A DNA stretch of 64,000 nt from Nitrospirota bacterium (GTDB lineage Bacteria > Nitrospirota > Thermodesulfovibrionia > Thermodesulfovibrionales > Dissulfurispiraceae). A program made the position numbers and the translations under genes. Positions 4,808 to 62,964 of the stretch are shown here, piece after piece. The notes under the pieces are model-generated. The model saw nothing but the letters and a program-made list of their open reading frames with translations. It was not told where the DNA came from and made no database searches. How positions within the stretch are numbered: the stretch's first letter is position 1; each line of letters starts with the position of its first letter. The stretch covers positions 384,001 to 448,000 of the forward strand of contig CAWBMP010000002.1 of the NCBI GenBank assembly GCA_963790025.1, in the 5' to 3' direction.

Positions 4808-5479
4808 TTACTTGACTTCTTCTTCGGGGTGTGTCATATGCCTTATCATTTTGCCAGCTGCAAGATAAATCGCCATCTCGGCAATATTGGTGGCATGGTC
4901 GGCGATACGCTCGAGATTCTGGGCCACAAAGCTTATTTTCATTGCCCTTGTTACTGTCGTTGGGTCCTTTACCATAAAAAGAATTAATTCATTTTGAACT
5001 TCATTCCTCAGATCATCGATTTCATCGTCTCTCATGATAACATCCATCGCCAATTTTTTGTCCCCTTTTACAAAGGCGTCAAGTGCGTCTCTTGTCATTC
5101 CCTGGGCAATCTCTCTCATTCTCGGGACATCGATATACGGTTTCAGCAGGGGCTCTTCATTGAGTTGAAGGGCCCTATGAGCAATATTGACTGCGAGATC
5201 ACCCATCCTTTCGAGGTCGGTGGTGATCTTCATTGCCGTTGTTATAAATCTCAAGTCGCTTGCCTTAGGCTGCATAAGTGCAATGAGGCGAATGCACTCC
5301 TCATCTATTTGGATATCAAACATGTTGATCTGATGATCTTTCTCGATTATACTTTGGGCGAGATCATTGTCCCTGTCGACGAGCGCCCTCACCGAATCCT
5401 TGATGGCATTTTCAACCATGGACCCCATCATAAGGACCTTTTCTTTAAGCCGCAGCAATTCCTCATCGAAAATGGACAT
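4808..5479 (-). CDS. phoU: Phosphate signalling protein PhoU
   Basis: QPKASDLR, DLERMGD and LERIADHATNIAE motifs; directly follows pstB. Confidence 0.97.
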   Translation of the reverse strand: MSIFDEELLRLKEKVLMMGSMVENAIKDSVRALVDRDNDLAQSIIEKDHQINMFDIQIDEECIRLIALMQPKASDLRFITTAMKITTDLERMGDLAVNIAHRALQLNEEPLLKPYIDVPRMREIAQGMTRDALDAFVKGDKKLAMDVIMRDDEIDDLRNEVQNELILFMVKDPTTVTRAMKISFVAQNLERIADHATNIAEMAIYLAAGKMIRHMTHPEEEVK

Positions 5480-6258
5480 TATCCAAACCTCCCCGTAATA
5501 TAATCTTCCGTAAGCTTTTCAGACGGAGCAGTGAACATTTTATCGGTCCTGTCAAATTCAATCAGCTCTCCGAGCATCATAAACCCCGTCCAGTCGGATA
5601 TCCGGGCCGCCTGCTGCATATTGTGCGTTACGATTATTATTGTAACATTATTTTTCAACTGAACTATGAGCTCTTCTATCTTACTGGTTGAGATAGGATC
5701 CAGGGCGGAAGTCGGCTCATCGAAAAGAAGTACGTGCGGCTCAACCGCCAGCGCCCTGGCAATAACAAGCCGCTGCTGCTGTCCGCCCGATAAATCATAT
5801 GCGCTAACATTAAGTTTGTCCCTTACTTCATCCCAAAGGGCAGCATTTTTTAGGGCCTTTTCAACTCGTTCCGACAGTTCGGAACGATTAGTGACGCCCT
5901 TTAATTTAAGCCCGTACGCAATATTATCGAATATAGTCATCGGGAAGGGGGTAGGCTTCTGAAAGACCATGCCGATTCTGCTCCTCAGCTTGATGACATC
6001 GACGTCATTCGAAAGAATATTCTTTCCTTCGAAGACTATCTGTCCTTCGTATCTGTTCTTGGGATAAAGGTCATGCATACGGTTAAAACACCTGAGCAGA
6101 GTGGTTTTCCCGCAACCGGAAGGTCCGATCAAGGCAGTCACCCCCATTTTATGGGCGGACAGGCTGACCTGTTTTAATGAATGGATAGTACCCGAATAAT
6201 AAAAATTCAGCTCTTTTGCTTCTATTTCGACCATATCGGACACTATTTGTACCTCCAT
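5479..6258 (-). CDS. pstB: Phosphate ABC transporter ATPase PstB (start may be ATG 6234)
   Basis: [42 protein letters not shown]. Confidence 0.97.
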
Positions 6259-7082
6259 TTAATAATGAGTCTGCCTGCAATGGTAATCAGGAGAATGAAC
6301 ACCGTTATGATAAAAGCGGCGCCCCATGCCTGCGTGTGCCATTCTTCATAGGGGCCCATTGCGTACTGGAATATTGAAGCAGTTAATGACGCGACCGACC
6401 CCCGCATGTCGGTGGAAAAGAACGAATTGTTAAACGAAGTAAAAAGCAGCGGGGCTGTCTCACCGGCGACCCTGGCAATAGAAAGCAATATTCCGGTGAA
6501 AATGCCTGTGGCAGCGCCTCTGTAAACAACATCTATTATTACCTTGTAGTATGGCGCTCCAAGCGCAAAGGCCGCCTCCCTCAGCGTCCAGGGCACAAGG
6601 GAAAGCATGTCTTCAGTCGTCCTCAAAACAACGGGGATCATGATAACCGCCAGGGCGACTGCTCCGGCCCAGCCGTTGAAATGCCCGACAGGCTTTACCA
6701 TTATTGCATAGATAAAAGTGCCTACTACTATGGAAGGTACGCTTACCATGATATCAGAAAGTATGCTTATGGACCGGGCTATCCTAGTTCCCCTTGCATA
6801 TTCGGCAAGAAATGTGCCTCCCAGAACACCTATGGGCACACCTATTAATGTAGCAAAGCTGGTTATCATCAACTGCCCTACGAAGGCATTGCGAAGACCG
6901 CCGCCGGCGACACCCACGGGAGTCGGATCATTAAGGAATAAGCTCGGAGTAAGGGCGCCTATGCCGTGCACGAGTACATCGCCGAGAATAAAGACAAGCC
7001 AGAACATTCCTGACAGGGCGGCAAGAGTGCTCAATGCGAGGGCAGCAAGGCTTTCGGCTTTTCTTTTCTGATCGATGTTCAT
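6243..7082 (-). CDS. pstA: Phosphate ABC permease PstA
   Basis: [25 protein letters not shown]. Confidence 0.96.
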
Positions 7083-8020
7083 CGGGAATATCTTCTCTCA
7101 GCCTTGAGCAGGAAAAACTTTGCTATTGCAAGAACGATAAAACTCATTACGAAAAGGACAAGGGCCAGATAAAAAAGTGACGATAGATAGAGGTCTTTAT
7201 CGGCCTCGGTAAATTCATTGGCAAGCGTTACGGTAATGGTTGCAGCGGCATCAAAGAGCGACGTGGTAATCTGGTGATTATTTCCAAGGACAAAAGCCAC
7301 TGCCATAGTCTCGCCGAGCGCCCTGCCAAGGGATAGAACGACTCCTCCGTAAACACCGAGTTTTGAGTAAGGCAGTACAACGTTTTTCACAACCTCCCAT
7401 CTAGTTGCGCCGATGGCGTAAGCGGATTCCTTCACCACGGAAGGCGTCAAATTGAAAGAATCCCTTGAAATACTCGCAGTGAACGGTATAATCATAATGC
7501 TCAGGATGACACTCGCCGTCAGGATGTCGATGCCCATTGGGGTGCCGCTGAACAATATTCCGACTACGGGCAATGCGCCGAAGGTCTTCTGAAGAGCGGG
7601 TTCTATATACTTTGACATGATGGGGGCCAGTGTGAACAGCCCCCACATGCCGTAAATGATACTGGGTATTGCCGCCAGCAGTTCGATAGCGATCCCGATT
7701 GGTCCCTTCATGAAATTAGGAGCTATTTCAGTGACGAAAATAGCGATCCCGATAGCAAGCGGAATTGCAATTATGAGAGCGAGCACTGTTGTAACAAAAG
7801 TCCCGAAAATGGTAGTCGCAGCCCCGAAAGATTCTTTTACAGGGTCCCAATCGGTGGATTTCAGGAAATTTATGACGCCGAAATGGCCGATAGCCAGCGA
7901 CGATTCCCGTATAAGCACGTATAAAATGCCCAAAATCAAAAGAACTACCACTGAAGATGCTAATGCGGTGACAATAGAAAATGCGAAATCAGCAGAGTTC
8001 TTCTTATCAAGAATTGGCAA
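7079..8020 (-). CDS. pstC: Phosphate ABC permease PstC
   Basis: ELLAAIPSIIYGMWG, GRALGETMAV. Confidence 0.96.
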   Translation of the reverse strand: MPILDKKNSADFAFSIVTALASSVVVLLILGILYVLIRESSLAIGHFGVINFLKSTDWDPVKESFGAATTIFGTFVTTVLALIIAIPLAIGIAIFVTEIAPNFMKGPIGIAIELLAAIPSIIYGMWGLFTLAPIMSKYIEPALQKTFGALPVVGILFSGTPMGIDILTASVILSIMIIPFTASISRDSFNLTPSVVKESAYAIGATRWEVVKNVVLPYSKLGVYGGVVLSLGRALGETMAVAFVLGNNHQITTSLFDAAATITVTLANEFTEADKDLYLSSLFYLALVLFVMSFIVLAIAKFFLLKAERRYSR

Positions 8021-8062
8021 ACAGCTTGCTCCTTTTTGAAGAAATTAATCAAATGTTGAACG

Positions 8063-8179
8063 TTAAATGTTGCCGAGCACTCAAAGCGCCTGTGATTAGC
8101 GTGTTGAGCGCTCGGCAACATTTAATATCAAGAAGCAACTAAAAGGGTCAGGATATATAATACATGCCTGACCCTTTTA
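8063..8179 (-). terminator. Two tandem hairpins between pstS and pstC (terminator or mRNA stabiliser)
   Basis: 22-bp arms TTAAATGTTGCCGAGC(A/G)CTCAA at 8063-8084 and 8104-8125; 13-bp arms TAAAAGGGTCAGG at 8140-8152 and 8167-8179. Confidence 0.7.
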
Positions 8180-8191
8180 ATTCAATTAACT

Positions 8192-9202
8192 TTAATACAC
8201 GCCATACTCTTTCCAGTAGGCCCTGACCTTGTTCTTTAGGCCTTTGGGAAGCGGCACGTAAATCAGCTCTTTTGCTTTTGCATCCCCGTTCTTGAATGCC
8301 CAATCATAAAACTTAACGGCTTTCATAGCGCTTTCCTTTTTATCCTTGGCAAGCAGAATAAAGGTTGCGCCTGCGATTGGCCAGGAGTTCTTGCCAGGGG
8401 CATTAACGAGCCAGAGATCAAAGTCTTTTTTCGGATCGAAATTCGCTGAGGCAGCAGCATCTTCAAAGGCTTCGAAGCTCGGCTGGATAACTTTTCCTGC
8501 CGAATTTTTCAGCGCTGTATACGCCAGCTTGTTCTGTATTGCATAGGCAAATTCGACGTAGCCGATAGAATTCGGGGCCTGTTTTACATAGTTGGACACT
8601 CCCTCATTCCCCTTACCGCCTATACCGATTGGAAACTTTACAGATGTGCCTGCTCCAACTTTTGTTTTCCACGCAGGACACACATCGCTGAGATAATTGG
8701 TAAATATCGCGGTGGTACCGGAGCCGTCAGACCTATGGACAATGGAAATTTCACTGTGCGGCAATTGAACAGTCGGATTTAGGGACTTGATCTTTGCATC
8801 ATCCCAGAATTTTATCTCGCCAAGATATGCTTTGCATATGGAATCGGAGTCAAGTTTTAATTCGCCGGCTTTTAAGCCAGGCATGCTGACCACTAGAACG
8901 ACCCCTCCCATGACGGCAGGGAACTGGATCAAACCGTCTTTCTTGAGTTGTTCAGAGCTGAGAGGTGCATCGGATGCTCCGAAATCGACCGTCCGGGCTG
9001 AAATCTGCCTGATACCTCCGCCTGAGCCGATGGACTGGTAATTGATCCTGACGCCCGTAGCCTTCTGATAATCATAAGCCCAGGACTGATATACCGGGGC
9101 AGGGAATGATGCACCTGCGCCATTTATTATGTCCTCTGCATGCACCATGCTAAATGACAAGATACAAGCCACTGCTAAAATCAAACTTATTACTGATTTC
9201 AT
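8192..9202 (-). CDS. pstS: Phosphate ABC substrate-binding protein PstS
   Basis: Signal peptide, GAGASFP, YQSIGSGGG, DFGASD, HRSDGSGTT; AGGAGG RBS. Confidence 0.97.
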   Translation of the reverse strand: MKSVISLILAVACILSFSMVHAEDIINGAGASFPAPVYQSWAYDYQKATGVRINYQSIGSGGGIRQISARTVDFGASDAPLSSEQLKKDGLIQFPAVMGGVVLVVSMPGLKAGELKLDSDSICKAYLGEIKFWDDAKIKSLNPTVQLPHSEISIVHRSDGSGTTAIFTNYLSDVCPAWKTKVGAGTSVKFPIGIGGKGNEGVSNYVKQAPNSIGYVEFAYAIQNKLAYTALKNSAGKVIQPSFEAFEDAAASANFDPKKDFDLWLVNAPGKNSWPIAGATFILLAKDKKESAMKAVKFYDWAFKNGDAKAKELIYVPLPKGLKNKVRAYWKEYGVY

Positions 9203-10060: not shown

Positions 10061-11254
10061 TTACTGTGATTTAAGCAGGTGGGCTTTATCGGTAATTTCC
10101 CATGGCAGCCCTATATCCATCCTGCCGACGTGTCCATAAGCTGCAAGCTTCCTGTAGAAACCTCCTTTAATCGCTGAAGGGAGGCGTCTCAGCTGAAACT
10201 GCCTTACAATACCTGCAAGCCTGAAATCGAAGTTTTTATCAACCAGGTCGGCAATAACAGTATCGGACAGTCTGCCGGTGCCGAACGTCTCTACCTGAAT
10301 GCTCACCGGATGGGCAAGTCCTATCGAATAACTGAGCTGGATTTCGCACTCGTCAGCAAGACCGGCCGCAACCACATTCTTTGCGGCGTAACGCGCCGCA
10401 TATGCGCCGATCCGGTCAATTCTCATCGGGTCCTTGCCGCTGAGCGCTGCACCGCTGTGGCGAGAGTACTCCCCATATGTATCAATAGCATTCTTTCTCC
10501 CGGTAAGCCCCGAATGGATTGACGGGCCTCCGGTAATAAACTGGCCGTCGGGATTGACGAAAATCCTGGTATCCTTATCCGGCTTCACGGCCTCATCATG
10601 GAATACATTGTCGATAATGGCCTCCCGTACATCACTGGTTAACTGTTTCAGATCAGGACCTGTGCCCTTCCTCTGGCTCGCAATTACCGTTATGCTGTGT
10701 ATCCTGTGAGGACGACGGTCTTTGAACTCCACACCCACCTGGGTTTTGCCGTCCTGGGAAAGATACGGAAGTATCTTCTGAAGTCTCGCTGAAGTGAGCC
10801 GTCTTGCGAGTTTGTGCGCCAGCCATATTGGAAGCGGCATAAATGCGGGAGTTTGCTTACAGGCGAAACCAAAAACCGTAACCTGATTTTTTACCGGGAC
10901 ACTGTCTATTTCACTCTCCGTCATCTCCCGTTCATCAAAACAGCAATCCGGGTCGCGGGGCGATTCTTTGAGGCTTGTTAAAATACTGCACGTTTTCCCG
11001 TTGAATTCCTGCCGTTCATAGCCAATCTGGCTTATCACCTGGCGGGCTATATAGGGGAAGTCCACATAAGCATCTGAGGAGTATCTGGCCGCAATAAAGA
11101 GAATGGAAGTCGAGACGGCGCATTCTGCTATAACGCGCGAGTACGGGTCCTGCTGGAGAAAGTGGTCTACGATAGCATCGCTTATCTGGTCACATAGTTT
11201 ATCTGGGTGCCCCTCGGTCACAGATTCGGATGTAAACATGAAATCTTTTTTCAT
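10061..11254 (-). CDS. metK: Divergent methionine adenosyltransferase (MetK) paralogue
   Basis: FTSESVTEGHPDK, DGKTQV, GLTGRK, SGKDP and AAYGH are kept, but GAGDQG is replaced by PVKNQV. ATGA overlap with the ATPase gene. Confidence 0.85.
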   Translation of the reverse strand: MKKDFMFTSESVTEGHPDKLCDQISDAIVDHFLQQDPYSRVIAECAVSTSILFIAARYSSDAYVDFPYIARQVISQIGYERQEFNGKTCSILTSLKESPRDPDCCFDEREMTESEIDSVPVKNQVTVFGFACKQTPAFMPLPIWLAHKLARRLTSARLQKILPYLSQDGKTQVGVEFKDRRPHRIHSITVIASQRKGTGPDLKQLTSDVREAIIDNVFHDEAVKPDKDTRIFVNPDGQFITGGPSIHSGLTGRKNAIDTYGEYSRHSGAALSGKDPMRIDRIGAYAARYAAKNVVAAGLADECEIQLSYSIGLAHPVSIQVETFGTGRLSDTVIADLVDKNFDFRLAGIVRQFQLRRLPSAIKGGFYRKLAAYGHVGRMDIGLPWEITDKAHLLKSQ

Positions 11255-14200
11255 ATCGCTTCACCTCGCATAGTTTTCTTTGTCGCTTCATTGACAACCA
11301 GAGGGAGTACCGCGCTTCCACCGATTACAAGGGCATCGGTAAGATTTATCATCGTAGTTCCGAGCAGTCCTCTTAGTCCGGGCACCGCTATTGTCAGGGC
11401 CTGCAGCGCAAAAGACCCCCCAAGGGCAACGTCCAGATATCTGTTCGCGGGCAGCCGCTCCTTGTCGAACATACTCAGTCTCTCAGAACGGCAGCTTATG
11501 GCATGCAGAAGCTGACTTGAGGTGAGACTCATAAAGGCCAGGGTCCCTGCCTGAGCTCCAGGACCGTACCGCATGACGCCATATCCGTAAGCTCCGAGCG
11601 CAGTCGCACTCATCATCGCAGATTCGAAACCGATCCTTTTAAAGTCACTGCTCATGATAATAGGATGGTTAGGATTACGCGGAGGCTTGCTTAGGACGTC
11701 GGGTTCAGGGAGTTCAAGTGCCAATGCGAGCCCGGGGAATATATCGGATATGAGGTTGATCCAGAGCAATTGCATCGCACTAAGCGGCTGTCCAAGACCG
11801 GCGGCAGTGGCGGTGAACATTACCATAATTTCGCTCAGGTTTGTCGACAGGATGAAGTGCAACGATTTTCTGATATTGTTATAAATGGTGCGTCCATGAC
11901 TTACCGCGATAATCATGGTCTCAAGATTGTCGTCTTCGAGCACAATATCCGCCACCTCACGAGCGACGTCTGTGCCGGTGTGGCCCATTGCAATTCCTAT
12001 GTCGGCTGCCTTGAGCGCAGGGCCGTCATTAATACCGTCACCGGTCATGGCGACAACTTTCCCTGTGCTCTGCAGGGCCTGCACAATTTGAAGCTTATGC
12101 GCCGGACTCACGCGGGAAAAGACATGGACCCGCCCGGCAAGCGCTTTCATGACATCGGGTTCAATATCCGTAAGGTGCGTCGAATCAAGAATTTCGAGTT
12201 GTTCTCCGTTGCTCAGGTCCAGCTCGTTTCCGATGGCATAGGCCGTCGGCGTCTGGTCCCCGGTTATCATAACTGTTTCTATGCCGGCTGAGTGGAAAAC
12301 GCCGATCAGTTCCTTGACCCCCCTTCTCGTAGGGTCTGCCATACCTACAAGACCGAGCCAGACGAAACCGCTGGTGATGTCGCAGGCACTGCTTCCGTTT
12401 TCTATATGTTGATACGCGATGCCGAGGATCCTGAGTGCTTCACCGGCCATTCGTTCATTTTCCGTTTCCATTGCGAGCCTGTCATCAACTGAAATCGGGA
12501 ACTTTTCGCCGTCCTTTATATACAAGTCGCACATTTCCAGCACTTCTGTAGGGCTGCCTTTCAGTGCTATGATCTTGCCCTCGGGGCCGAAGTCATGTTG
12601 GGTGGCCATATAATTGCGGTTTTCAGCACGGTAACATATTTTCAGTAACGGGTACATCTTTCTGATTTGAATGATGTCGACGCCTGCACAAATCGCCATA
12701 TGCATCAGGGCATTCTCGGTTGGTGATCCCCGCAGCACATATCTTCCTTCTCCATTTTCATAACAACTGCTTTCTGCAGGCGCCTCACCGGCATGTTCTT
12801 TTACGCTGATTTCAGATTCGTTGCATAGCACAGATATATGAATAAGCCTCATGAACTCGTCCGAGGCATAGGGGTTAACTGTCTCAACCCCGACCATAAA
12901 TTTGCCGTCCCTTGCCTTTATTCTCTTCATTCCTGTATAAATTGCAACAACCGACATCCTGTTCAATGTTATAGTGCCGGTCTTGTCCATACATATAGTT
13001 TGCACAGAGCCGAGAGTTTCGACTGCGTTGAGATGACGGATAAGGACTTTATGCCGTCTCATATTCCTGATTCCGAGAGCGAGGGTCGTGGTGGCAACGG
13101 TCGGCAGCCCTTCGGGGACCGCTGCTACAGCAAGAGAAATCGAGCTTTTAAGCATCTGGATGAAACCGTATCCCCTGAGCAGCCCTATAAGGAAAACAAC
13201 ACCGCAGACAGCCCCGCTGATCAACACAAGCTGTGTACCCATTTTCTTGAGCTGCCGCTCCATAGGTGTCTCGGGAGACTCCGCAGCTCCCACGAGTTCC
13301 TGTATTTTTCCTATCTCAGTAAACTTTCCTGTGGCCACGACCACTGCAAGGCCCTGTCCCCCCGTAACCAGGGTGCCCATATAGGCCATGTTGACCCTAT
13401 CAGCAAGCGGCACATTGTCTTCGTCTATGCTCTCTGTAGTCTTCACGACCGGCAGGCTCTCGCCGGTAAGCGCAGATTCATCGACGCTCAGATAGGTCGC
13501 TTCAATCAGCCTGCTGTCGGCGGCAATATAGCTGCCGGGCCTGAACACCAGCATATCGCCAACGACCACCTCCTCGGCAGGGATATCTTTAAAAATACCG
13601 TCCCTTATGACAAGCGAGGATGGCCTTACAAGACTTTTGAGCGAGTTAATGGTTTTTTCCGCCTGGCTCTCGGTGACATAGCCGATGACCGCATTGATGA
13701 CCACTACTCCGGCAATAACCACAGCATCAGCGACGCCGCCAGTCACTATCGAGAGACCGGCTGCAACACCCAGCAGGGCATTCGGGATCGAATTGAATTG
13801 ATCGATAAGAATACTGAATGCTGAACGTGGAACTGATTCAGGGAGCAAATTGGGGCCGAATTTCTTTAGTCTGGCTTGAGCGCTATCAGTTGAAAGACCG
13901 GCAGTTGCCGAGGAACCCAAACGCTTAAGGACTGCGGATGGTGCTTCGGTATGCCATGCCTCTACCGTCTGGTCTTCCGCGTGTTCAACAAGTCTTCTTA
14001 ATTTTCCCCTGCTTTTTACTGGGACAGAAGACCGGACAACATTGGCCTTGCCGCTTTCTACAACAGGGAAAGGGTACCCGGGCGCAGTCTCTGACTGAGT
14101 AACTGTATTTGCAGCCTGCTGAAAGTCGCCGCCTTGATATTCGCGGACGATATCATGAATAAGATGCGCTATGGCATGAGGGGTATTGAAGGAATTGAAA

Positions 14201-14364
14201 TAGACGAGAACACTGCCGGTCAATATGTTTATTGAGACGTCACTAATCCCCTCTAAGCCAGAAAGGCCTGATTCAAGGTGTTTTTTTAGAGATTCCGAAC
14301 GACGAAGCCCCTCTACCTTGTATCGGACCCTTCCCGGCACTGCCGCATGTACTGTCTCGACCAC
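11251..14364 (-). CDS. P2A-type (Ca2+/Mn2+-like) P-type ATPase with N-terminal HMA2-like domain
   Basis: TGES, AVPEGL, DKTGT, TGDGIND, STNLSE (M5), WINLISD (M6); N-terminus HAAVPGRVR. Confidence 0.92.
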   Translation of the reverse strand: MVETVHAAVPGRVRYKVEGLRRSESLKKHLESGLSGLEGISDVSINILTGSVLVYFNSFNTPHAIAHLIHDIVREYQGGDFQQAANTVTQSETAPGYPFPVVESGKANVVRSSVPVKSRGKLRRLVEHAEDQTVEAWHTEAPSAVLKRLGSSATAGLSTDSAQARLKKFGPNLLPESVPRSAFSILIDQFNSIPNALLGVAAGLSIVTGGVADAVVIAGVVVINAVIGYVTESQAEKTINSLKSLVRPSSLVIRDGIFKDIPAEEVVVGDMLVFRPGSYIAADSRLIEATYLSVDESALTGESLPVVKTTESIDEDNVPLADRVNMAYMGTLVTGGQGLAVVVATGKFTEIGKIQELVGAAESPETPMERQLKKMGTQLVLISGAVCGVVFLIGLLRGYGFIQMLKSSISLAVAAVPEGLPTVATTTLALGIRNMRRHKVLIRHLNAVETLGSVQTICMDKTGTITLNRMSVVAIYTGMKRIKARDGKFMVGVETVNPYASDEFMRLIHISVLCNESEISVKEHAGEAPAESSCYENGEGRYVLRGSPTENALMHMAICAGVDIIQIRKMYPLLKICYRAENRNYMATQHDFGPEGKIIALKGSPTEVLEMCDLYIKDGEKFPISVDDRLAMETENERMAGEALRILGIAYQHIENGSSACDITSGFVWLGLVGMADPTRRGVKELIGVFHSAGIETVMITGDQTPTAYAIGNELDLSNGEQLEILDSTHLTDIEPDVMKALAGRVHVFSRVSPAHKLQIVQALQSTGKVVAMTGDGINDGPALKAADIGIAMGHTGTDVAREVADIVLEDDNLETMIIAVSHGRTIYNNIRKSLHFILSTNLSEIMVMFTATAAGLGQPLSAMQLLWINLISDIFPGLALALELPEPDVLSKPPRNPNHPIIMSSDFKRIGFESAMMSATALGAYGYGVMRYGPGAQAGTLAFMSLTSSQLLHAISCRSERLSMFDKERLPANRYLDVALGGSFALQALTIAVPGLRGLLGTTMINLTDALVIGGSAVLPLVVNEATKKTMRGEAI

Positions 14365-14370
14365 GTAACT

Positions 14371-15039
14371 TTATTCTTCCCTTTTCGTTTTATGCTTTGT
14401 AGAAATTTCAGCCGGCCCGCTGGAAGAGGGTCCTGATGCAGACGAACGCGGCAGCGCGGAGCCGGCAATTTCCTTAACTCCGGAAACGACGCCGACCAGC
14501 ATGTCCTTTACAGCTCGCACTGCCGTATTCCCGATCGAGCCCGCGGCCTCTATTGCCCCGCCAACAGCGACAGTAGCGGCCTCTTCGACATTCCCACCTA
14601 CTTCTTTCGTAGCTTCAATTACACCGTCAACGGCCCTTCTCGCTACGAGTGCCACATCGGCACCGACTTCGGCAGCCCCCTTGACAGCGCCCTTAACGGT
14701 CTGCTCGGCAACTTTCATAACATCCCCGCCAACATCGCTGACGCCCATTACGATGCCCTTGGCAACGCTTTTGGTGCTCAGGATTAAGCCTGTGCCGACC
14801 TCTTCCGTAGCCTGAATTGCACCTTTTACCACATCTGCGGTAATAGTAACACCTTCATTAGCCACAGATGCAGTCGCTTTCAGGGTATTCGATACAGTAT
14901 TTCTGACAAGACTCACGATTTCCGCCTCGATTTCGTTTATCCCCTTCAGACTGCTTACAATCCCCTCTTTCACCTTTGTTCCGGCTGCGCCAATATATGC
15001 AGCCCCCTCTGAACCGACCTTCCCTTCGCTCTTAGCCAT
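14371..15039 (-). CDS. Ala/Val/Gly-rich protein with ~8 tandem 22-aa repeats
   Basis: Units such as EQTVKGAVKGAAEVGADVALVA and RRAVDGVIEATKEVGGNVEEAA; GGAGG RBS before ATG 15039. Confidence 0.85.
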   Translation of the reverse strand: MAKSEGKVGSEGAAYIGAAGTKVKEGIVSSLKGINEIEAEIVSLVRNTVSNTLKATASVANEGVTITADVVKGAIQATEEVGTGLILSTKSVAKGIVMGVSDVGGDVMKVAEQTVKGAVKGAAEVGADVALVARRAVDGVIEATKEVGGNVEEAATVAVGGAIEAAGSIGNTAVRAVKDMLVGVVSGVKEIAGSALPRSSASGPSSSGPAEISTKHKTKREE

Positions 15040-15092
15040 GATAATGCCCTCCATTTTTACACCTTTTAATTGTGTTGTTTTTAGCGTGCCGT

Positions 15093-15130
15093 AAAGTAGC
15101 GGCGTCACGGCGCATAGCTGCCGCTACTTT
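15093..15130. terminator. Intra-operon hairpin overlapping the stop of 15124..15609
   Basis: AAAGTAGCGGC ... GCCGCTACTTT. Confidence 0.5.
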
Positions 15131-15609: not shown

Positions 15610-15896
15610 TAAGCTCCTGTTTTGTCCTCGGGGTTAATGCCGGTTGTTTCAGTATGAGATTCTGCCATTTCAGCCTTTACCTCCGCAACGATATCTTCCA
15701 TCATTTCCCCTGCTTCCGCGAAAGTCTCTCTGCTTTTTTCATAGAGTATAAGGCCGCCCTTTATTGCAGCTTTTGCAATCGGTTTTACGACTCCTGCAAT
15801 CGCAGGAATCACCTGCGGGGCAAATAGGGCCGCGCCAATACCTATAGCCAATCCTGTAAGGATATTACCTTTTAACCCATTTTCAAATAGTGCCAT
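15609..15896 (-). CDS. DUF5132-like small protein (GxxxG membrane segment plus amphipathic helix)
   Basis: GLAIGIGAA..P ... KPIAKAAIKGG ... EDIVAEVKAE; AGGAGG RBS. Confidence 0.85.
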   Translation of the reverse strand: MALFENGLKGNILTGLAIGIGAALFAPQVIPAIAGVVKPIAKAAIKGGLILYEKSRETFAEAGEMMEDIVAEVKAEMAESHTETTGINPEDKTGA

Positions 15897-16025
15897 GGTT
15901 TCCTCCTTGTCGGTCTTTAAGTAAAGTGTATATTAATATGGGTTCAAAGTAAATGTAACCCAAACTTTTCATTACTTGCCTACTTTCAAGACAGGTAATC
16001 AGGAGACAGTTAAAGAATTCTTCAC

Positions 16026-16125
16026 TGTTAAAACCTTTGCTGTGACATGTTAAAACCTTTGTCTTGACACTCTTCATTTTTCGGCTATACTTTAATTGGA
16101 GCGTATATAAATTGGAGCGTATATA
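16026..16125 (+). promoter_or_regulatory. Sigma70-type promoter with a 22-bp direct repeat and a 16-bp tandem duplication
   Basis: TGTTAAAACCTTTG...TGACA twice (16026-16069); TTGACA 16064, 16 nt, TATACT 16086; AATTGGAGCGTATATA twice (16094-16125). Confidence 0.6.
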
Positions 16126-16144
16126 AAAAGGGAGGTGCATCGCT

Positions 16145-16306
16145 ATGCCTATTGAAGTGAGCGTCACAGAACGGGAACTGCTGAAGAAGATCCTCAATTC
16201 GTATCTTTCAGAGCTGAGACTTGAGATCGTCGAAACGAAACACGACAAATCGTCCCTCCATGAAGAAGAGAACCTCGTAAGAGGGCTGCTGCAAAAGGTA
16301 TCCTAA
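16145..16306 (+). CDS. 53-aa helical hypothetical protein (not in ORF track)
   Basis: GGGAGGT RBS; MPIEVSVTERELLKKILNSYLSELRLEI...QKVS*; promoter upstream and hairpin downstream. Confidence 0.75.
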   Translation: MPIEVSVTERELLKKILNSYLSELRLEIVETKHDKSSLHEEENLVRGLLQKVS

Positions 16307-16443: not shown

Positions 16444-16583
16444 ATACAAATTCACATCGTGACATCAGAAATAATGAATATCCAATTTTACTATGTTACC
16501 AAGCACTTAAAGCGTATATGGATAATGTATTGAGTGTCCTGCGACATGCAGCATTCAACATTTCCCATAGAGGAGGTGCATTT

Positions 16584-17378
16584 ATGGAACACACTCAATG
16601 TACGGTTCTGAGCATGCGCAACGGTAATTTTATTGTGAAACTTGCTGAATACCATGAGGAACTGGTTAAAGCACTCAGACTGCGTTTTGATGTATTCAAT
16701 AGAGAATTGAACGAGGGTCTTGACAGCTCTTATATGACCGGGATGGACCGGGACAGTTACGATGACTATTGCGACCATCTTATTGTAATCGATACAAGAT
16801 GTAACAAGGTTGTAGGCACCTATCGCCTCCTCCTTGGTTCGGTCGCAGAAAGCAATATCGGCTATTATTCGGAGGGTGAATTCGACATGACCGGCATCAA
16901 GGCTATAGGTGGAGAGAAACTTGAACTCGGCCGATCCTGCGTCCACAGTGATTACAGGAATGCAGGTGTCATCAACCTGCTTTGGGCCGGCATAGCGCGG
17001 TACGTGGAAATGTACGATGTACGCCATTTATTCGGCTGCGGCAGCCTGCACACCGATGACCCTGTTGAAGTAAGCATGGTATACTTTTATATGAACACGT
17101 TTCACCGCTCGGGCGCCGAATTTACGGTGTACCCCATGAAAAAGCTGCGCGGGGTCGGCTTATGCCCTATTGTGGACCAGAAAACCGCGTTCGATAAACT
17201 TCCCCCGCTTATTAAGGGATACCTGCGGCTCGGAGCACTTATATGCGGAGAGCCGGCCTACGACGACGTATTCGGCACTACCGATCTCTATCTGCTACTG
17301 GAAACCGAAAAGTTGATCTCCCGGTATAAAAGGAGGTTTTTCCAGGAGCCAAACGAGACGTTATGCCGGGCATCGTAA
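16584..17378 (+). CDS. olsB: GNAT N-acyltransferase, OlsB-like (lyso-ornithine lipid synthase family)
   Basis: LRFDVFNREL, DSYDDYCDHL, VGTYRLL, LELGRSCVH, PPLIKGYLRLGA; GAGGAGG RBS before ATG 16584. Confidence 0.8.
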   Translation: MEHTQCTVLSMRNGNFIVKLAEYHEELVKALRLRFDVFNRELNEGLDSSYMTGMDRDSYDDYCDHLIVIDTRCNKVVGTYRLLLGSVAESNIGYYSEGEFDMTGIKAIGGEKLELGRSCVHSDYRNAGVINLLWAGIARYVEMYDVRHLFGCGSLHTDDPVEVSMVYFYMNTFHRSGAEFTVYPMKKLRGVGLCPIVDQKTAFDKLPPLIKGYLRLGALICGEPAYDDVFGTTDLYLLLETEKLISRYKRRFFQEPNETLCRAS

Positions 17379-18157
17379 AAATCCGAAAATTATTTCTCCT
17401 TCTTATAGTTAGCCTTTTCGTTTTTGTCTGTGGTATCCTGATCAAAGTCTTTCCCCTTGAACAGGGTCGAAAATTGAGTCTTCAGACACGCTTCATGCGG
17501 TTATGGGCACGGTCCGGCTGTTTCATCCTCGGCATCAATATTGCCTCCACCGGCTCATATAGAGCTGACGATGTTTTTTTTATCGTGAGCAATCATTGCA
17601 GCTATATCGATATACTTATTATCGGCAGTCTGATTCCATCCGTATTCGTTTCAAAAAGTGATGTGGCCTCATGGATATTCCTTGGGAGGATGGTAAAACT
17701 TGCCGGGACCATTTTTGTCAACCGGGAATCCAAAACAGCTTCGGTCAGAGCAATGGAGGCCATTAAGGAGCGACTTGCAAACGGCATCAATGTTGTGGTT
17801 TTTCCTGAAGGTACCACCAATAACGGACTTGCTATCAGAGATTTCAAGAGCACCTTTTTCAAGGCGCCCATCGACAGTAACGTGCCTGTTTTGCCTGTGA
17901 GCATTATTTATTCGCACATAGATCGAACTCCCGTGACACCCGGCACAATAGACGCCGTCGCCTGGCACTCAGACATGGAGTTTCTTTCTCATTTTTGGAA
18001 CCTTCTCGGTATCGGGAGGATTGACGCGCGTATTCATTTCAGTCCGCCCCTCTACCATTTTACCGAAAACAGAAAAATACTTTCTTCTTTTGTCTTTGAG
18101 AAAGTCAGAGATGGAATAGAAATTGGAAGATGTTTTAGAGAAGAAGATACTTGTTGA
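17363..18157 (+). CDS. PlsC-family acyltransferase, OlsA-like
   Basis: NHCSYID (HX4D) and FPEGT; overlaps the olsB-like gene. Confidence 0.85.
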   Translation: MPGIVKIRKLFLLLIVSLFVFVCGILIKVFPLEQGRKLSLQTRFMRLWARSGCFILGINIASTGSYRADDVFFIVSNHCSYIDILIIGSLIPSVFVSKSDVASWIFLGRMVKLAGTIFVNRESKTASVRAMEAIKERLANGINVVVFPEGTTNNGLAIRDFKSTFFKAPIDSNVPVLPVSIIYSHIDRTPVTPGTIDAVAWHSDMEFLSHFWNLLGIGRIDARIHFSPPLYHFTENRKILSSFVFEKVRDGIEIGRCFREEDTC

Positions 18158-18206: not shown

Positions 18207-18578
18207 TTATATCAGGACAGCTAATATTGAGAGGGCCGAACCTTCCAATGCCTGCTGGACAAAGGCACCCAAAACCGCCCTGCCCACGATATGACCGGCT
18301 GTTTTAGCTGCTCCATGAATATACTGATCAGTGGTTGCCGCCTTTGTCGTATCGAAATAACCTTTTCTCTGCAATATATTGATAATATCGTTGTGGCCGG
18401 TCATTTTGGGGTTATAGTTTACCAGAAGACTACCGGTAGTAAGGTTAATATCGATTGTCGCAATACCCTGCAGCTGACTTAATGTCTTTTTTAACTCGTT
18501 AGCCACGTTTTCGTTCTTTTTTATTACAGGGCTTTTTATTCTGAGTCTTCCAGGCACATTATGAATGTAATAGCTCAC
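18207..18578 (-). CDS. HMA2-like domain protein with hydrophobic C-terminus
   Basis: HNVPGRLRI, INLTTGSLLVNY; GGAGGAG RBS. Confidence 0.85.
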   Translation of the reverse strand: MSYYIHNVPGRLRIKSPVIKKNENVANELKKTLSQLQGIATIDINLTTGSLLVNYNPKMTGHNDIINILQRKGYFDTTKAATTDQYIHGAAKTAGHIVGRAVLGAFVQQALEGSALSILAVLI

Positions 18579-18873
18579 TATCTCCTCCCTTCATGTCAAT
18601 TTTCGTGAATGTTTTACAATCTGGATATCCCGAACACCTGAACCGCAATATTTTTTCTTCCCTTTTATATAAATGCATCATTCTTCCGCAAACCGGGCAC
18701 AGAGGCCTGTTTTTTACTTCAAATCTTACGGCACCGGCGCTAAACTGCCTGCCGCATATAAGACATAGGAACCTCTGTTTTCCCTGCCACGTCTTACCAT
18801 ATTTATACACGGCATCCAACTTGCAGTGCGGGCATTTAGTTGTAAAGCTTTGTGTCACCGCATCTGCTGTCAT
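18559..18873 (-). CDS. Double zinc-ribbon protein (IS1 InsA-like ribbon plus topoisomerase C4-like ribbon)
   Basis: CPHC..KYGK..GKQRFLCLICGRQF and CPVCG...RCSGYPDC; no DDE domain. Start codon uncertain. Confidence 0.75.
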   Translation of the reverse strand: MTADAVTQSFTTKCPHCKLDAVYKYGKTWQGKQRFLCLICGRQFSAGAVRFEVKNRPLCPVCGRMMHLYKREEKILRFRCSGYPDCKTFTKIDMKGGDSELLHS

Positions 18874-18894
18874 GTAATATTTAATCAAATTATG

Positions 18895-56449: not shown

Positions 56450-56722
56450 TCATGCCAAACCACGTATAAAGCGTTCTTCGTCCTTTTTACTCAGAATTTT
56501 CAGAACCACCGTTCTGCCCGGTTCAACTATATAAAACACCCGATATGTGTCTACCCTGGGCCGATAATAATCCAATTTCTTCCCTCTGATCTTTTTGATC
56601 GGTTTTCCTCTGGAGAATGGGTTTCCCCTGAGTATCTGCAATGCCCGAACAATCTTCCGGCAAACAGCGTCGCTGAAATCGTCAAGGTCTTTAACGGCTC
56701 AGGGTGAAAGGACTACCTGAAC
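56450..56722 (-). pseudogene. RelE/ParE-family toxin pseudogene
   Basis: In frame VQVVLSP*AVKDLDDF...YRPRVDTYRVFY with TGA at 56699-56701; no start codon or antitoxin. Confidence 0.7.
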
Positions 56723-57762
56723 ATTACAACTGCCAGCGCAAAGATGCCGTAAATTACTCCTCCCAAAAGCATGGCAACAGGTGAGACTTTCTTTCCTAAA
56801 TGAATGTTTGCGATGACTATCAAAGCGGAGATTAGCGCCAGTGCAGCAGACAGCAGCGCCAGGCCCGAAATCGTCCAGTCGGTAAAAAGCAGTCCCACCG
56901 AGACGGGAAAGGTTGCTTGAAAAACCATGGCTCCCGTGATATTTCCCACGGCAAGAGTGTCTCTGCCTTTCAGCGTCCATGTTATGCTATTGAATTTTTC
57001 GGGCAATTCAGTGGCAATAGGCGCGACCAGCAGGGCAAACAACAGAGGACTCATTCCCCATGAGAGTGAAAGTTTTTCAAGACTTCCGACAAATATATGA
57101 GCGCCGCCCACCATGATAACAAGCGAGGCGGTTATCTGAAAGCAAATGAGTAATAATGACGTGTTTTTGTATGGTTCCGGCCTCGCTGGTCCGAGTTCCA
57201 TGCCCGCAAACCGCCTGAAGTCTGCAAACAGCTTTTCAAAATGCAATTGTTCGGCATGGAGGATATCAGCGCTTTCCGCCTTGAATGTAGAGTACACATA
57301 CAGCACATATCCGCCGGCAAGCAAAGCTGCTATCAGGATATGACTGTGGGGGACTATGAAGGGCAAGAAGATAGCTGCGCCGTACATGACAACGAAAAAG
57401 ATAAGGTCCCGTTTAGTGGAACCAGGTTCGATATAGAGGGCGAATTTCCTTTTTTTTCTTAGCTTGCCGATCAATACTGTCAGTCCTACAACAAAAAAAG
57501 CAAGTGTTGCAAGCATGAAAGGTGCGCCGAGTATCGCTCCGACCCCTATCTTCCTTGCAGTATCGCCGCCGTGCAGCAGAATGGCGACAAGGGGGAGTAT
57601 GGTCTCGGGTAAGGCAGTGCCGATTGCCGCAAGTATACTTCCGACAACTGCCTGGGACAACGATAGCCGCCTGCCGAACGATTCGATGCCGTTAGTGAAG
57701 AATTCGGCACTGAACAGTATCATGAAGAGACTGAAAATGAGAAACAGAATAGGTTGTATCAT
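56713..57762 (-). CDS. Sodium:calcium antiporter (CaCA family)
   Basis: Alpha repeats GTALPE and ATELPE; GNITG. Confidence 0.9.
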   Translation of the reverse strand: MIQPILFLIFSLFMILFSAEFFTNGIESFGRRLSLSQAVVGSILAAIGTALPETILPLVAILLHGGDTARKIGVGAILGAPFMLATLAFFVVGLTVLIGKLRKKRKFALYIEPGSTKRDLIFFVVMYGAAIFLPFIVPHSHILIAALLAGGYVLYVYSTFKAESADILHAEQLHFEKLFADFRRFAGMELGPARPEPYKNTSLLLICFQITASLVIMVGGAHIFVGSLEKLSLSWGMSPLLFALLVAPIATELPEKFNSITWTLKGRDTLAVGNITGAMVFQATFPVSVGLLFTDWTISGLALLSAALALISALIVIANIHLGKKVSPVAMLLGGVIYGIFALAVVMFR

Positions 57763-58641
57763 TTAACGGACAAGCATCACAGGGCAAGGCGAAGATTTAA
57801 TCAGTGCTTCGGCAATGCTTCCGAGCAGAACACCCTTTGTGGAAGAAACACCCTGTGCCCCGATGACCATCAACTCTGCTTTTTTCTCCACAGCAAGCTC
57901 GTTGATGGCTTTATAAGGGACTCCTGTCCGGACAATGCGCTCTGCTCCTTCACATAAGTCCGACAGGGAGCATATCGATTTCTCCGCCTCCTGAACTGCG
58001 TGATTTCTATAGTTCCGTTTTTCCTCTTCGCTTAAATTCCTCAGCCTGTCGAAACTTTTTTCCAGTTTAAGGCTTGAGAGTATATGGGCGACTGTTAGTG
58101 CAGAAGAATTTTTTCCCGATAAAAAGCGCGCAAACTCAAGAGCCTTTCCCGAGTGATCGGAAAAATCAACTGCACACAAAATATTTTTTATAGCGACTGA
58201 ACCCAGTGCGGCGCTGTCCGCTTTCTGTCCCCTCACAACCAGCACGGGAATGGCCAAGGATTTAACGAGCCGCTCCGAACTGCTGGTCTGTATCAGATGA
58301 GATTTGTGCACGAGTACGAGGGCGGCAACCGAAAGTTCGCATATTGTCTTGCTGAATGTTTCTACAAGCCTGCCGACTCCAATCCTGCCGGTTGCGGTTA
58401 CACCGTATGCCTTCAGGCTATCAGCCCATTTCTTCAGCTCTGCACCACTCGCATCCTCTTCCTGTTCAATATAAGGCAGAAGGTAGGCGGGGGGAGTAAG
58501 TGCGTAATCCATTGCATTGAGCATTGTGATCTCACCGTCCCCATCCGCGAGGGCTTGTGACAACCATAACGCATAAGATAGGACTTTTTCTGTATCGGCT
58601 CCAAAATCGACTGCGGCGAGTATTGTCTTTTTAGTATCCAT
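57763..58641 (-). CDS. Tandem universal stress protein
   Basis: Two USP domains (AAVDF and CAVDFS; LGSIAE..PCPVM). Confidence 0.92.
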   Translation of the reverse strand: MDTKKTILAAVDFGADTEKVLSYALWLSQALADGDGEITMLNAMDYALTPPAYLLPYIEQEEDASGAELKKWADSLKAYGVTATGRIGVGRLVETFSKTICELSVAALVLVHKSHLIQTSSSERLVKSLAIPVLVVRGQKADSAALGSVAIKNILCAVDFSDHSGKALEFARFLSGKNSSALTVAHILSSLKLEKSFDRLRNLSEEEKRNYRNHAVQEAEKSICSLSDLCEGAERIVRTGVPYKAINELAVEKKAELMVIGAQGVSSTKGVLLGSIAEALIKSSPCPVMLVR

Positions 58642-62044: not shown

Positions 62045-62964
62045 GAGGCAAGCCCGAGAAATTCCTGGAGCTGTTCCCTGCTGATAATCGTTACATATTC
62101 TCCCCGCGGCGCATGACCTTGCGAGGGAACAAGCTTTATAAGGCTTTTGAATTCCAGTTCTGTAAACAGGGAAAGGAGCGCCGTCCAATCCGGCCCTTTG
62201 ATCATAAGATCGGGCAGATGGGCCTCAACAGGCAGGTCCATATCGATGGTTGCAAGCGACCGGCTCAGCCTGATTTGTTCGACGTTTTCCGTTATTAACT
62301 TTCTCAGGCGCTTGTTTTCGATTTTTTCGGGATGGTCCAGCAGGCTCTCCAGACCTCCCGCCTTCAAAAGAAGAACTTTGGCGGTCTTTTCCCCGATGCC
62401 TTTTACTCCCGGTATATTATCAACAGCATCGCCACCGAGTGCCATGATTTCGGCAATCTTTTCGGGAGGCATCTCAAAGCGATCTCTAATATATTTATCG
62501 TCAATAATTACTTCTTTCATAGGATCGTAAATCTTGATGAAACTATTAACTGCCTGCATCATGTCTTTATCACCGCTAACAATAAACACGCGGGCCTGCT
62601 GTACAGCGGCTTTCCTCGCAAGTGTGCAGATAACATCGTCCGCCTCATAGCCGGGCATTTCGAAAACTGGAATGTTAAAGGCCTTTATCACCTCCTTGAT
62701 CAGCGGGATCTGAATAATCAGATCGCCCGGCGTTTCGGGCCTCTTTGCCTTATAGTGTTCATAGAGCCTGTGGCGTTCAGTCGGTACCGGGGAATCAAAG
62801 ACTATTGCCAAAGCATCAGGTTTCTTCTCCCGAAGTATCTTCAGTACCATGGTAGTGAAACCGTAAACCGCGTTCGTCGGGATGCCTTTTGAGTTGGTAA
62901 GCTTTTTTATGGCATGGAAGGCCCTGTGAAAATAGGAGTTCCCGTCAATCAGGTAAAGGTCCAT
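62041..62964 (-). CDS. polA: DNA polymerase I, 5'-3' exonuclease part (split gene)
   Basis: LIDG, PTNAVYGF, YEADD, GDKD, DNIPGVKGIGEKTA. Confidence 0.9.
   Translation of the reverse strand: MDLYLIDGNSYFHRAFHAIKKLTNSKGIPTNAVYGFTTMVLKILREKKPDALAIVFDSPVPTERHRLYEHYKAKRPETPGDLIIQIPLIKEVIKAFNIPVFEMPGYEADDVICTLARKAAVQQARVFIVSGDKDMMQAVNSFIKIYDPMKEVIIDDKYIRDRFEMPPEKIAEIMALGGDAVDNIPGVKGIGEKTAKVLLLKAGGLESLLDHPEKIENKRLRKLITENVEQIRLSRSLATIDMDLPVEAHLPDLMIKGPDWTALLSLFTELEFKSLIKLVPSQGHAPRGEYVTIISREQLQEFLGLAS

Follow-up and report, generated by a model that had tools for sequence, protein, structure and literature searches.

Methionine adenosyltransferase (MetK) is among the most conserved enzymes, and annotation pipelines give this name to every member of the family. 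Its chemistry proceeds in two steps, hydrolysis of tripolyphosphate (PPPi) included, with two Mg2+ and K+ (bioRxiv 10.1101/2021.02.18.431797, accessible part). The CoBaHMA domain, listed in Pfam as HMA_2, was described on the basis of calcyanin and of genes adjoining ccyA in cyanobacteria producing intracellular amorphous calcium carbonate (iACC). In the ccyA neighbourhoods, DUF5132 proteins and CoBaHMA-hairpin proteins are found beside a Ca2+/H+ exchanger (for both statements, the accessible parts of bioRxiv 10.1101/2024.07.07.602159 and PMC8890360). Chlorogloeopsis fritschii PCC 6912 is cited in the accessible part of PMC8890360 solely as the source of a Ca2+/H+ antiporter. The gene analysed here lies in a 64 000-nucleotide stretch (hereafter the window) of contig CAWBMP010000002.1 from a Nitrospirota bacterium (assembly GCA_963790025.1, positions 384 001 to 448 000). 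It encodes a MetK paralogue, named MetKv, downstream of a P-type ATPase gene (Table 1). As judged from alignments, the methionine/S-adenosylmethionine (SAM) pocket of MetKv is rewritten and its metal/phosphate site is retained. MetKv is obligately paired with the ATPase, a CoBaHMA Ca2+-type pump.

The open reading frame (ORF) of MetKv was uninterrupted. The DNA at its 5′ end reads GCGATATGAAAAAAG, in which the stop codon TGA of the ATPase and the start codon ATG of MetKv share the bases ATGA (four-base overlap). The three MetK families of Pfam, PF00438, PF02772 and PF02773, were all matched (E 4e-55, 5e-36 and 6e-35, respectively), and the NCBIfam model TIGR01034 was matched at 385 bits (cut-off 309). 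Forty-five distinct MetK sequences of solved structures matched the protein, the best being 7r3b_A (1e-101); E. coli 1fug_A was matched at 9e-89. An AlphaFold2 model made from a 21-member family alignment had a predicted local distance difference test (pLDDT) score of 85.9 and a predicted template-modelling (pTM) score of 0.86, and was disordered at residues 250–272 and 373–375 only. Its top match in Foldseek was 7r3b_C (E 2e-44, template-modelling scores 0.88/0.94). Because Pfam, NCBIfam, the PDB sequences and Foldseek agree, MetKv is assigned the three-domain MetK fold with full-length homology. No second MetK-domain ORF was found among 59 of the 60 ORFs of at least 70 aa in the window, which were scanned. 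The window gave no Rfam match, SAM riboswitch included, and promoter and terminator scans of it performed no better than shuffle level.

Residues were mapped onto E. coli MetK (K-12, taken from NC_000913.3) and are given in the literature numbering, in which Met1 is not counted. H14, D16, K17, E42, D163, K165, F230, R244, K245, K265, D266 and D271 were retained in MetKv. We take D16 and D271 to be ligands of the two Mg2+, E42 to be the glutamate of the K+ site, and H14, K17, K165, R244, K245 and K265 to be phosphate-binding, so that the residues kept would presumably be those that hold the two Mg2+, K+ and the triphosphate. In an alignment of the window protein with 119 relatives (73–90% identity, 120 proteins in total), H14, D16, E42, K165, R244, K245, K265 and D271 were found in MetKv and in 118 to 120 of the 120. 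Substitutions were E55R, D118N, D238H, K269R, G258S, G260A and F262L. In MetKv's own numbering, the rewritten pocket is formed by R57, N123, H247 and R278, and the leucine at position 262 is L271. The two motifs that we regard as MetK family signatures were also altered: GAGDQG reads PVKNQV and GGGAFSGKD reads SGAALSGKD. R55, N118, H238 and R269 were each invariant (120/120), and positions 55/118/238/269, which read RNHR in MetKv, read EDDK in 19 and QDDK in one of the 20 canonical loci described below. D118 and K269 are counted here as methionine/SAM-side positions.

In the accessible part of PMC8727953 (legend of Fig. 5), the SAM contacts of the E. coli enzyme in structure 1RG9 are E55, Q98, I102, H14, D163, R229, F230 and D238. 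Five of these eight are altered in MetKv, where E55, Q98, I102, R229 and D238 read R, S or E, P, Q and H. Set against this contact list, as far as that source gives it, the residues lost lie on the side of methionine and adenine. The initial annotation of this DNA, made from the sequence alone, had listed H14, D16, E42, D163/K165, R244/K245, K265 and D271 as kept, and E55R, D238H, K269R and the change of GAGDQG to PVKNQV as the alterations. The alignments bore out both lists. It had also given Q98 as replaced by Glu. The loss of the glutamine was upheld in each alignment, but its partner depends on the alignment (S98 in HMMER and in one MAFFT alignment, E97 in another), and position 98 is variable among the close relatives (L in 85, S in 20 and M in 6 of 120).

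Relatives were collected at three depths. A word-indexed protein search scored 8000 candidates, from which the best 120 rows (the window protein and the 119 relatives above) were kept. These relatives came from metagenome-assembled genomes (MAGs) of Nitrospirota, Thermodesulfovibrionales and Dissulfurispiraceae and from metagenomes, and the sole names among the 120 rows were 'methionine adenosyltransferase' and 'S-adenosylmethionine synthetase'. An exhaustive search of 50%-identity representatives returned 18 380 MetK relatives. Among the best 150 of these, a series of divergent clusters carried R or H at 55, H238, R269 and L262, and the others were canonical (E/D/D/K). The closest canonical representative (P0128) comes from Anaerovoracaceae. 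Finally, one genome per species was scanned with a 17-sequence family alignment. At least 600 pattern matches were obtained, of which the best 80 were kept as loci, and sorting by the four diagnostic positions gave 61 variant-type and 20 canonical loci. Four variant copies looked damaged: L048, L053 and L059 have internal stops, and L051 is truncated and fused. Variant carriers with a named source belong to seven phyla, namely Nitrospirota, Thermodesulfobacteriota, Cyanobacteriota, Pseudomonadota (alpha and gamma), Acidobacteriota, Myxococcota and Candidatus Binatota. Most are anaerobic Nitrospirota and Thermodesulfobacteriota; the cyanobacterial carriers include Chlorogloeopsis fritschii PCC 6912 (L012), Rivularia, Crocosphaera, Vacuolonema and Richelia. 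No plasmid-borne MetKv was seen among the PLSDB matches listed (tblastn with the window and Chlorogloeopsis queries), all of which were below 60% identity and, where annotated, canonical metK. The listed matches likewise gave no link to the Fischerella ccyA megaplasmid; one record of 60–80% identity stood outside the listed rows.

A tree of 113 rows was computed with IQ-TREE ('quick', LG+C20, root not inferred). It held the window protein, E. coli MetK, 74 locus proteins, and a manual selection from the 150 representatives (13 variant-like, 24 canonical); the truncated or interrupted proteins of L048, L051, L052, L053, L058 and L059 were omitted. A single branch of length 0.75 divided 69 variant from 44 canonical rows, with a support of 100 in the Shimodaira–Hasegawa-like approximate likelihood ratio test (SH-aLRT). 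The window protein was placed on the variant side of this branch, inside a 30-row clade consisting of variants only (SH-aLRT 96). It carries all the traits by which the clade is defined, i.e. H238, R269, a basic residue at 55, L262 and a CoBaHMA P-type ATPase directly upstream. Branching on the variant side was discordant with the species tree, Binatia standing beside Thermodesulfovibrio and Syntrophus beside Nitrospirota. This departure suggests that the pair of MetKv and pump moves horizontally. The ratio of non-synonymous to synonymous substitution rates (dN/dS) of MetKv was 0.03–0.14 in six of eight close pairs, the other two being saturated. MetKv is under strong purifying selection.

The pattern of conservation was then read across the clade. 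In the 44 canonical MetKs, 103 positions reach 93% conservation or more, and these were compared in 56 ATPase-linked sequences. Sixty of the 103 were kept, including H14, D16, K17, E42, D163, R244, K245, K265, D266, D271 and R272. Five were switched to another conserved residue (D238H, G258S, F262L, K269R and V270I), and 38 were relaxed, including E55, Q98, S99, I102, G115–G120, K165, F230, G259 and G260. Position 55 was R in 48 sequences, H in four, Q in two and K in two. The position of K165 was occupied by K in 44 and T in seven, and that of the adenine-stacking F230 by F in 27, L in 16 and V in five. A subgroup of Syntrophobacteraceae type (L033, L034, L035 and L050) combined H14N with D163E. 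From the relaxation of F230 and K165, together with Asn at position 14 in these four loci, it appears that the phosphate/metal set is conserved across the clade and that adenosine handling is not.

In 60 of the 61 variant loci, the gene that ends immediately before the MetK gene, on the same strand, encodes a homologue of the window's ATPase; the remaining locus (L052) starts inside the gene and has no upstream sequence. The window-type ATPase adjoins none of the 20 canonical metK loci, two of which have unrelated P-type ATPase matches (26–28% identity) a few kb downstream. The two genes share the four-base overlap in 24 loci, are separated by 0–100 nt in 21, and by no more than 223 nt, the longest separation among the variant loci, in three. 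In a further 12 loci other overlaps were computed, at least one of which is an artefact (L028, with a real gap of 15 nt), and in L051 the ORFs are fused. Pairwise distances of MetKv and of the pump, taken over the same 21 loci, were correlated (Mantel r 0.90, 0 of 2000 permutations as high). This correlation reflects co-inheritance and is not a measure of binding.

ATPase–MetK chimeras were encountered in a search for longer proteins. Among the best 120 of 202 matches, P0393 (947 aa), P0394 (790 aa, from a Richelia MAG) and P0438 (1090 aa) were of this kind, and L051:8303-10957 (Richelia sp. SL_2_1) is an 884-aa ORF without MetKv residues 1–94. Part of the pump or of MetKv is missing from each of the four. 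They were therefore read as deletion products and rejected as Rosetta-stone evidence, and apparent fusions in L028 and L060 were discarded as artefacts of the gap computation. Such rare joins look like deletion products of a reduced symbiont genome rather than designed fusions. A separate observation concerns MetK proteins of unusual length. Many of about 780–880 aa, and some of about 1240 aa, carry intein/LAGLIDADG domains (PF14890, PF14528; among the matches listed, e.g. P0397, P0400, P0443 and P0449). The few intein-bearing MetKs with a named source are from Woesearchaeota, Aenigmarchaeota and Nanoarchaeota.

The pump matched the Pfam domains E1-E2_ATPase, Cation_ATPase_N/C and Hydrolase (HAD), and HMA_2 at residues 5–63. 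Its NCBIfam scores were 606 (PMR1), 520 (SERCA) and 406 (PMCA) bits, below the respective cut-offs of 798, 703 and 507. The nearest solved structures were SPCA1 (8iww, 5e-138), then LMCA1 and SERCA. In 21 family members the motifs DKTGT (460–464), TGE (300–302) and PEGL (417–420) were invariant, and S303, which completes TGES, was found in at least 90%. N842, E845, N870 and D874, which by eye we equate with the cation-site residues of SERCA transmembrane segments 5 and 6, were also invariant in the 21.

A complex of MetKv with ATPase residues 1–140 and 445–835 was predicted from alignments made in the present analysis. The score was 0.56 (runs 0.39, 0.56 and 0.56), and the best of three controls gave 0.00. 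The runs agreed in at least 94% of contacts, with a partner pLDDT of at least 88. The mark set for such scores is reached by 116 of 157 solved complexes and by 2 of 215 mismatched pairs; at 0.60 or below, it is reached by 18 of those 157 and by both passing mismatches. A control in which the chain of the phosphorylation and nucleotide-binding (P/N) domains was swapped scored 0.00, so that any interface of MetKv would involve the P/N domains rather than the CoBaHMA domain. We know of no solved MetK–pump complex, which makes it unlikely that the score reflects memory of a known one. The prediction thus lends weak support to docking of MetKv on the P/N domains of the pump. The initial annotation had described an intact frame coupled through ATGA to the ATPase gene, as is seen in the 397-aa ORF and its DNA. 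It had proposed to see whether the substitutions mark an ATPase-linked clade, and alignment, tree (SH-aLRT 100) and synteny agree that they do. Its suggestion that the protein works with the pump fits the strict synteny, the co-divergence (r 0.90) and the weakly supported complex.

The explanation that we prefer, though with slightly less than even confidence, is that MetKv is a neofunctionalised MetK paralogue with a Mg2+/K+ tri-/polyphosphate site, not a SAM synthetase, and the cytosolic partner of the CoBaHMA Ca2+-type pump. The retained site would still bind a Mg2+-triphosphate chain. The basic set at the methionine/SAM side (R or H at 55, H238 and R269) would extend the phosphate-binding site, and the former cavity for C5′/ribose and methionine, now lined by Arg, His and Arg, would take further negative charge. 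Given the retained phosphate site and this basic cavity, the most likely substrate would be inorganic tri-/polyphosphate or a nucleotide's phosphate chain, and its hydrolysis would follow the tripolyphosphatase chemistry of the ancestor. In E. coli MetK, mutation of H14 or K165 reportedly impairs SAM formation far more severely than tripolyphosphatase activity. Hydrolysis would be located on the cytoplasmic P/N domains, and phosphate-chain turnover would thereby be tied to divalent-cation transport. MetKv might, for instance, release polyphosphate-chelated cation next to the pump, or control pump gating. DUF5132 and CoBaHMA proteins may organise the membrane system in which the pump works.

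Several points weigh against this explanation. MetKv exceeds the trusted cut-off of TIGR01034. The roles of individual residues in PPPi hydrolysis and in SAM formation are presumed on the basis of mutant studies of E. coli MetK, and the intact adenosine-side residues of the window's subfamily are no less compatible with adenosyl transfer than with a pure phosphatase. Co-divergence of adjoining genes is expected from common inheritance alone. The complex score lies in the weak band, and the multi-chain design differs from that on which the tool was calibrated. The Ca2+-type ion is inferred solely from the conserved SERCA-type site residues. No ppk, ppx, carbonic anhydrase/carbonate or cax gene recurred by the module in six diverse loci annotated with Pfam. 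Genes of the pst-phoU operon (pstS) occur near the module in 3 of the 61 variant loci only (L005, L008 and L011), so the operon is probably local Nitrospirota synteny and not part of the system. The case as a whole is drawn from sequence and model.

The strongest rival is adenosyl transfer. MetKv would bind ATP and move its 5′-deoxyadenosyl group to an acceptor other than methionine, and the product or PPPi would serve the pump. The acceptor, recognised by R55, N118, H238 and R269, would be without an alpha-amino group, carry an extra negative charge or be a small inorganic anion. This proposal, acceptor included, is judged rather unlikely. It nevertheless remains a serious rival because the ATP/adenosine-side residues are intact in the window's subfamily (H14 and D163 in 120/120, K165 and F230 in 119/120). 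The invariance of the four replacement residues suggests a specific new ligand over decay, and the subfamily also conserves the loop equivalent to the gating loop. Across the whole ATPase-linked clade, however, F230, K165, R229, D118 and the GAGDQG loop are relaxed and H14 is Asn in four loci. In addition, no gene making or using an adenosylated product was seen to recur near the module.

Another possibility is that MetKv is a non-catalytic pseudoenzyme that senses ATP, PPPi, pyrophosphate or a SAM-like ligand and gates the pump. The strict pairing and translational coupling with the pump would suit such a regulator, as would the weakly supported P/N-domain complex (0.56 against 0.00 for the best control) and the relaxation of 38 of the 103 canonical-conserved positions. 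We consider it unlikely all the same, since the full catalytic metal/phosphate set is kept at a dN/dS of 0.03–0.14, which is more than sensing usually needs; binding without turnover is indistinguishable from catalysis by sequence. That MetKv is a divergent but genuine SAM synthetase, either a second metK for local demand or the only one of the organism, is very improbable: its TIGR01034 score, the source names of all the listed relatives and the existence of true second MetKs such as MetK2 of the glycine-betaine cluster (accessible part of PMC8092242) speak for it, but against it stand RNHR in place of EDDK or QDDK, the five altered SAM contacts, the exchange of the acidic pair at the methionine side for the basic R55 and H238, a clade apart from the canonical MetKs of the same phyla with a spread off the species tree, and the window's lack of any Rfam match, SAM riboswitch included.

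Features of the window are collected in Table 1.

Table 1. Features of the window, with positions counted from its first nucleotide
Feature	Position	Strand	Basis
pstS-pstC-pstA-pstB-phoU operon, complete	4808..9202	(-)	
MetKv, MetK-fold paralogue, 397 aa	10061..11254	(-)	Intact ORF and MetK domain matches
P2-type (Ca2+-ATPase-like) P-type ATPase, 1037 aa, N-terminal CoBaHMA	11251..14364	(-)	Pfam and motifs
Ala/Gly/Val/Glu/Lys-rich repetitive protein, 245 aa, low complexity	14371..15108	(-)	No Pfam family
Stand-alone CoBaHMA (HMA_2) protein, 161 aa, hydrophobic C-terminal segment	15124..15609	(-)	Pfam, E 2.5e-12
DUF5132 protein, 95 aa	15609..15896	(-)	Pfam DUF5132, E 1.4e-17
ORF of 121 aa at the head of the gene row, doubtful gene	15883..16248	(-)	No Pfam match
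GNAT (Acetyltransf_5) and PlsC-type acyltransferase genes, overlapping head to tail	16518..18157	(+)	
Second stand-alone CoBaHMA/HMA protein, 123 aa	18207..18578	(-)	Pfam HMA_2, E 6.5e-15
Zinc-ribbon protein, 109 aa, paired with the second CoBaHMA gene	18559..18888	(-)	Pfam Zn_ribbon_InsA, Zn_ribbon_Top1
Na+/Ca2+ exchanger-family gene beside a tandem universal-stress-protein gene	56713..58641	(-)	
DNA polymerase I as two ORFs	60197..62964	(-)	
DNA polymerase I, 3′–5′ exonuclease and polymerase ORF	60197..62188	(-)	
DNA polymerase I, 5′–3′ exonuclease ORF	62041..62964	(-)	

Upstream of the pump the gene row consists, in order, of the DUF5132 gene, the CoBaHMA gene with a hydrophobic tail and the gene for the 245-aa repeat protein. 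The DUF5132 protein has one predicted transmembrane segment (hydrophobic residues 12–30) followed by a soluble helix. Homologues were present in 41 of the 61 variant loci; of the 30 loci whose upstream sequence extends for 7.5 kb or more, 27 had one. The 161-aa CoBaHMA protein had homologues in 35 of the 61 and the repeat protein adjoined the module in 22. In the protein atlas, the neighbours of the repeat protein are unnamed clusters from Thermodesulfobacteriota and Nitrospirota; our guess is that it might be a coat-like protein made of amphipathic helices. The 121-aa ORF at the head of the row had a tblastn match in none of the 80 loci. The 123-aa CoBaHMA protein is a loosely linked neighbour (30 of 61), and the stand-alone CoBaHMA family as a whole had a homologue in 37 of the 61. 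Zinc-ribbon homologues were found in 12, mostly beside a CoBaHMA gene. When the locus ORFs were clustered by single linkage, the shared CoBaHMA domain and shadow ORFs caused families to merge. Beyond the DUF5132, CoBaHMA, repeat and zinc-ribbon families, no recurrent neighbour was found in the six annotated loci.

Other genes lie close to the module. The complete pst-phoU operon closely follows MetKv, downstream and on the same strand. In seven loci, MetKv is closely followed by a member of an ORF family of about 100 aa (including L005:11199-11513, L003:2001-2282 and L002:6875-7258); six carriers are of Nitrospirota type and one is a Syntrophus MAG, and no counterpart was seen in the window. 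The Gcn5-related N-acetyltransferase (GNAT) and PlsC-type genes, flanked by the pump operon and the second CoBaHMA gene, in our view resemble the OlsB/OlsA genes of ornithine-lipid synthesis. Such a pair was found in none of the 80 loci. The window's GT21 and PHP genes were not met again in the loci, save for one PHP match in L053. The Na+/Ca2+ exchanger-family gene with its tandem universal-stress-protein gene lies about 42 kb from the pump, and a tandem universal-stress-protein gene was also seen just upstream of the pump in L037. At the far end of the window, the two ORFs of DNA polymerase I overlap by about 150 nt. The arrangement may reflect a natural split of polA, or else a wrong start codon in ORF calling.

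A broader proposal takes in these neighbours. MetKv and the CoBaHMA ATPase would form a new type of two-protein pump, with a tri/polyphosphate or adenosyl-transfer centre, derived from the active site of an ancient SAM synthetase, docked on its P/N domains. Together with the DUF5132, CoBaHMA-hairpin and amphipathic-repeat proteins, it would supply divalent cations to, or maintain, an intracellular phosphate- or carbonate-mineral compartment common to anaerobic Nitrospirota, Thermodesulfobacteriota and cyanobacteria. We hold this to be improbable.

The literature searched contained no description of the MetKv clade or of a P-type ATPase with a MetK-like partner; the CoBaHMA paper of Gaschignard et al. 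(2024, Proteins), which lay outside the search, may show the ATPase architecture or its neighbours. Atlas look-ups returned generic MetK clusters and unnamed clusters only. A large, selectively maintained bacterial clade that appears to lack the methionine site is still named MetK by NCBIfam and by all the source names seen, and its link to a Ca2+-type P-type ATPase is strict in seven phyla or more. Should the preferred explanation hold, a systematic misannotation would be corrected, and metabolic models may at present count a false SAM synthetase. P-type ATPase biology would gain a soluble, enzyme-derived partner, and a testable component would be added to the CoBaHMA/DUF5132 gene sets tied to intracellular calcium handling.

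The locus was finally compared with four kinds of known system. With the CYTH/TTM and PPX/GppA phosphatases, the likeness is confined to the proposed Mg2+-dependent hydrolysis of phosphate chains; MetKv has no kinship with them in sequence or fold. With the SPCA, LMCA1 and P2A Ca2+ (Mn2+) ATPases, the pump shares its best structure matches, the DKTGT, TGES and PEGL motifs and the Asn/Glu/Asn/Asp site residues. It differs from them by its N-terminal CoBaHMA domain and variable linker, by its NCBIfam scores below the cut-offs and by its MetK-fold neighbour. To our knowledge, no other P-type ATPase has a MetK-fold or similar soluble enzyme-derived partner. In the ccyA/cax loci of iACC cyanobacteria, as given in the accessible text, the same DUF5132 and CoBaHMA accessory families accompany a Ca2+ transporter as they do by MetKv. 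The transporter there is a CAX antiporter, whereas that of the MetKv locus is a P-type pump. The word 'adenosylmethionine' has 0 occurrences in the accessible text of the two papers on those loci (bioRxiv 10.1101/2024.07.07.602159; PMC8890360), i.e. no MetK homologue was met there. No calcyanin gene was recognised among the window ORFs in scans with general libraries, run without a calcyanin model. The closest known relative remains bacterial MetK (E. coli 1RG9 and 1FUG; L. plantarum 7R3B). MetKv is like it in three-domain fold and length, is 40–44% identical to it and shares its Mg2+-, K+- and triphosphate-binding residues. It differs in the methionine/SAM contacts and in both signature motifs, carries insertions of five residues ahead of the former GAGDQG loop and of seven close to the C-terminus, belongs to a separate clade and is always paired with a P-type ATPase.

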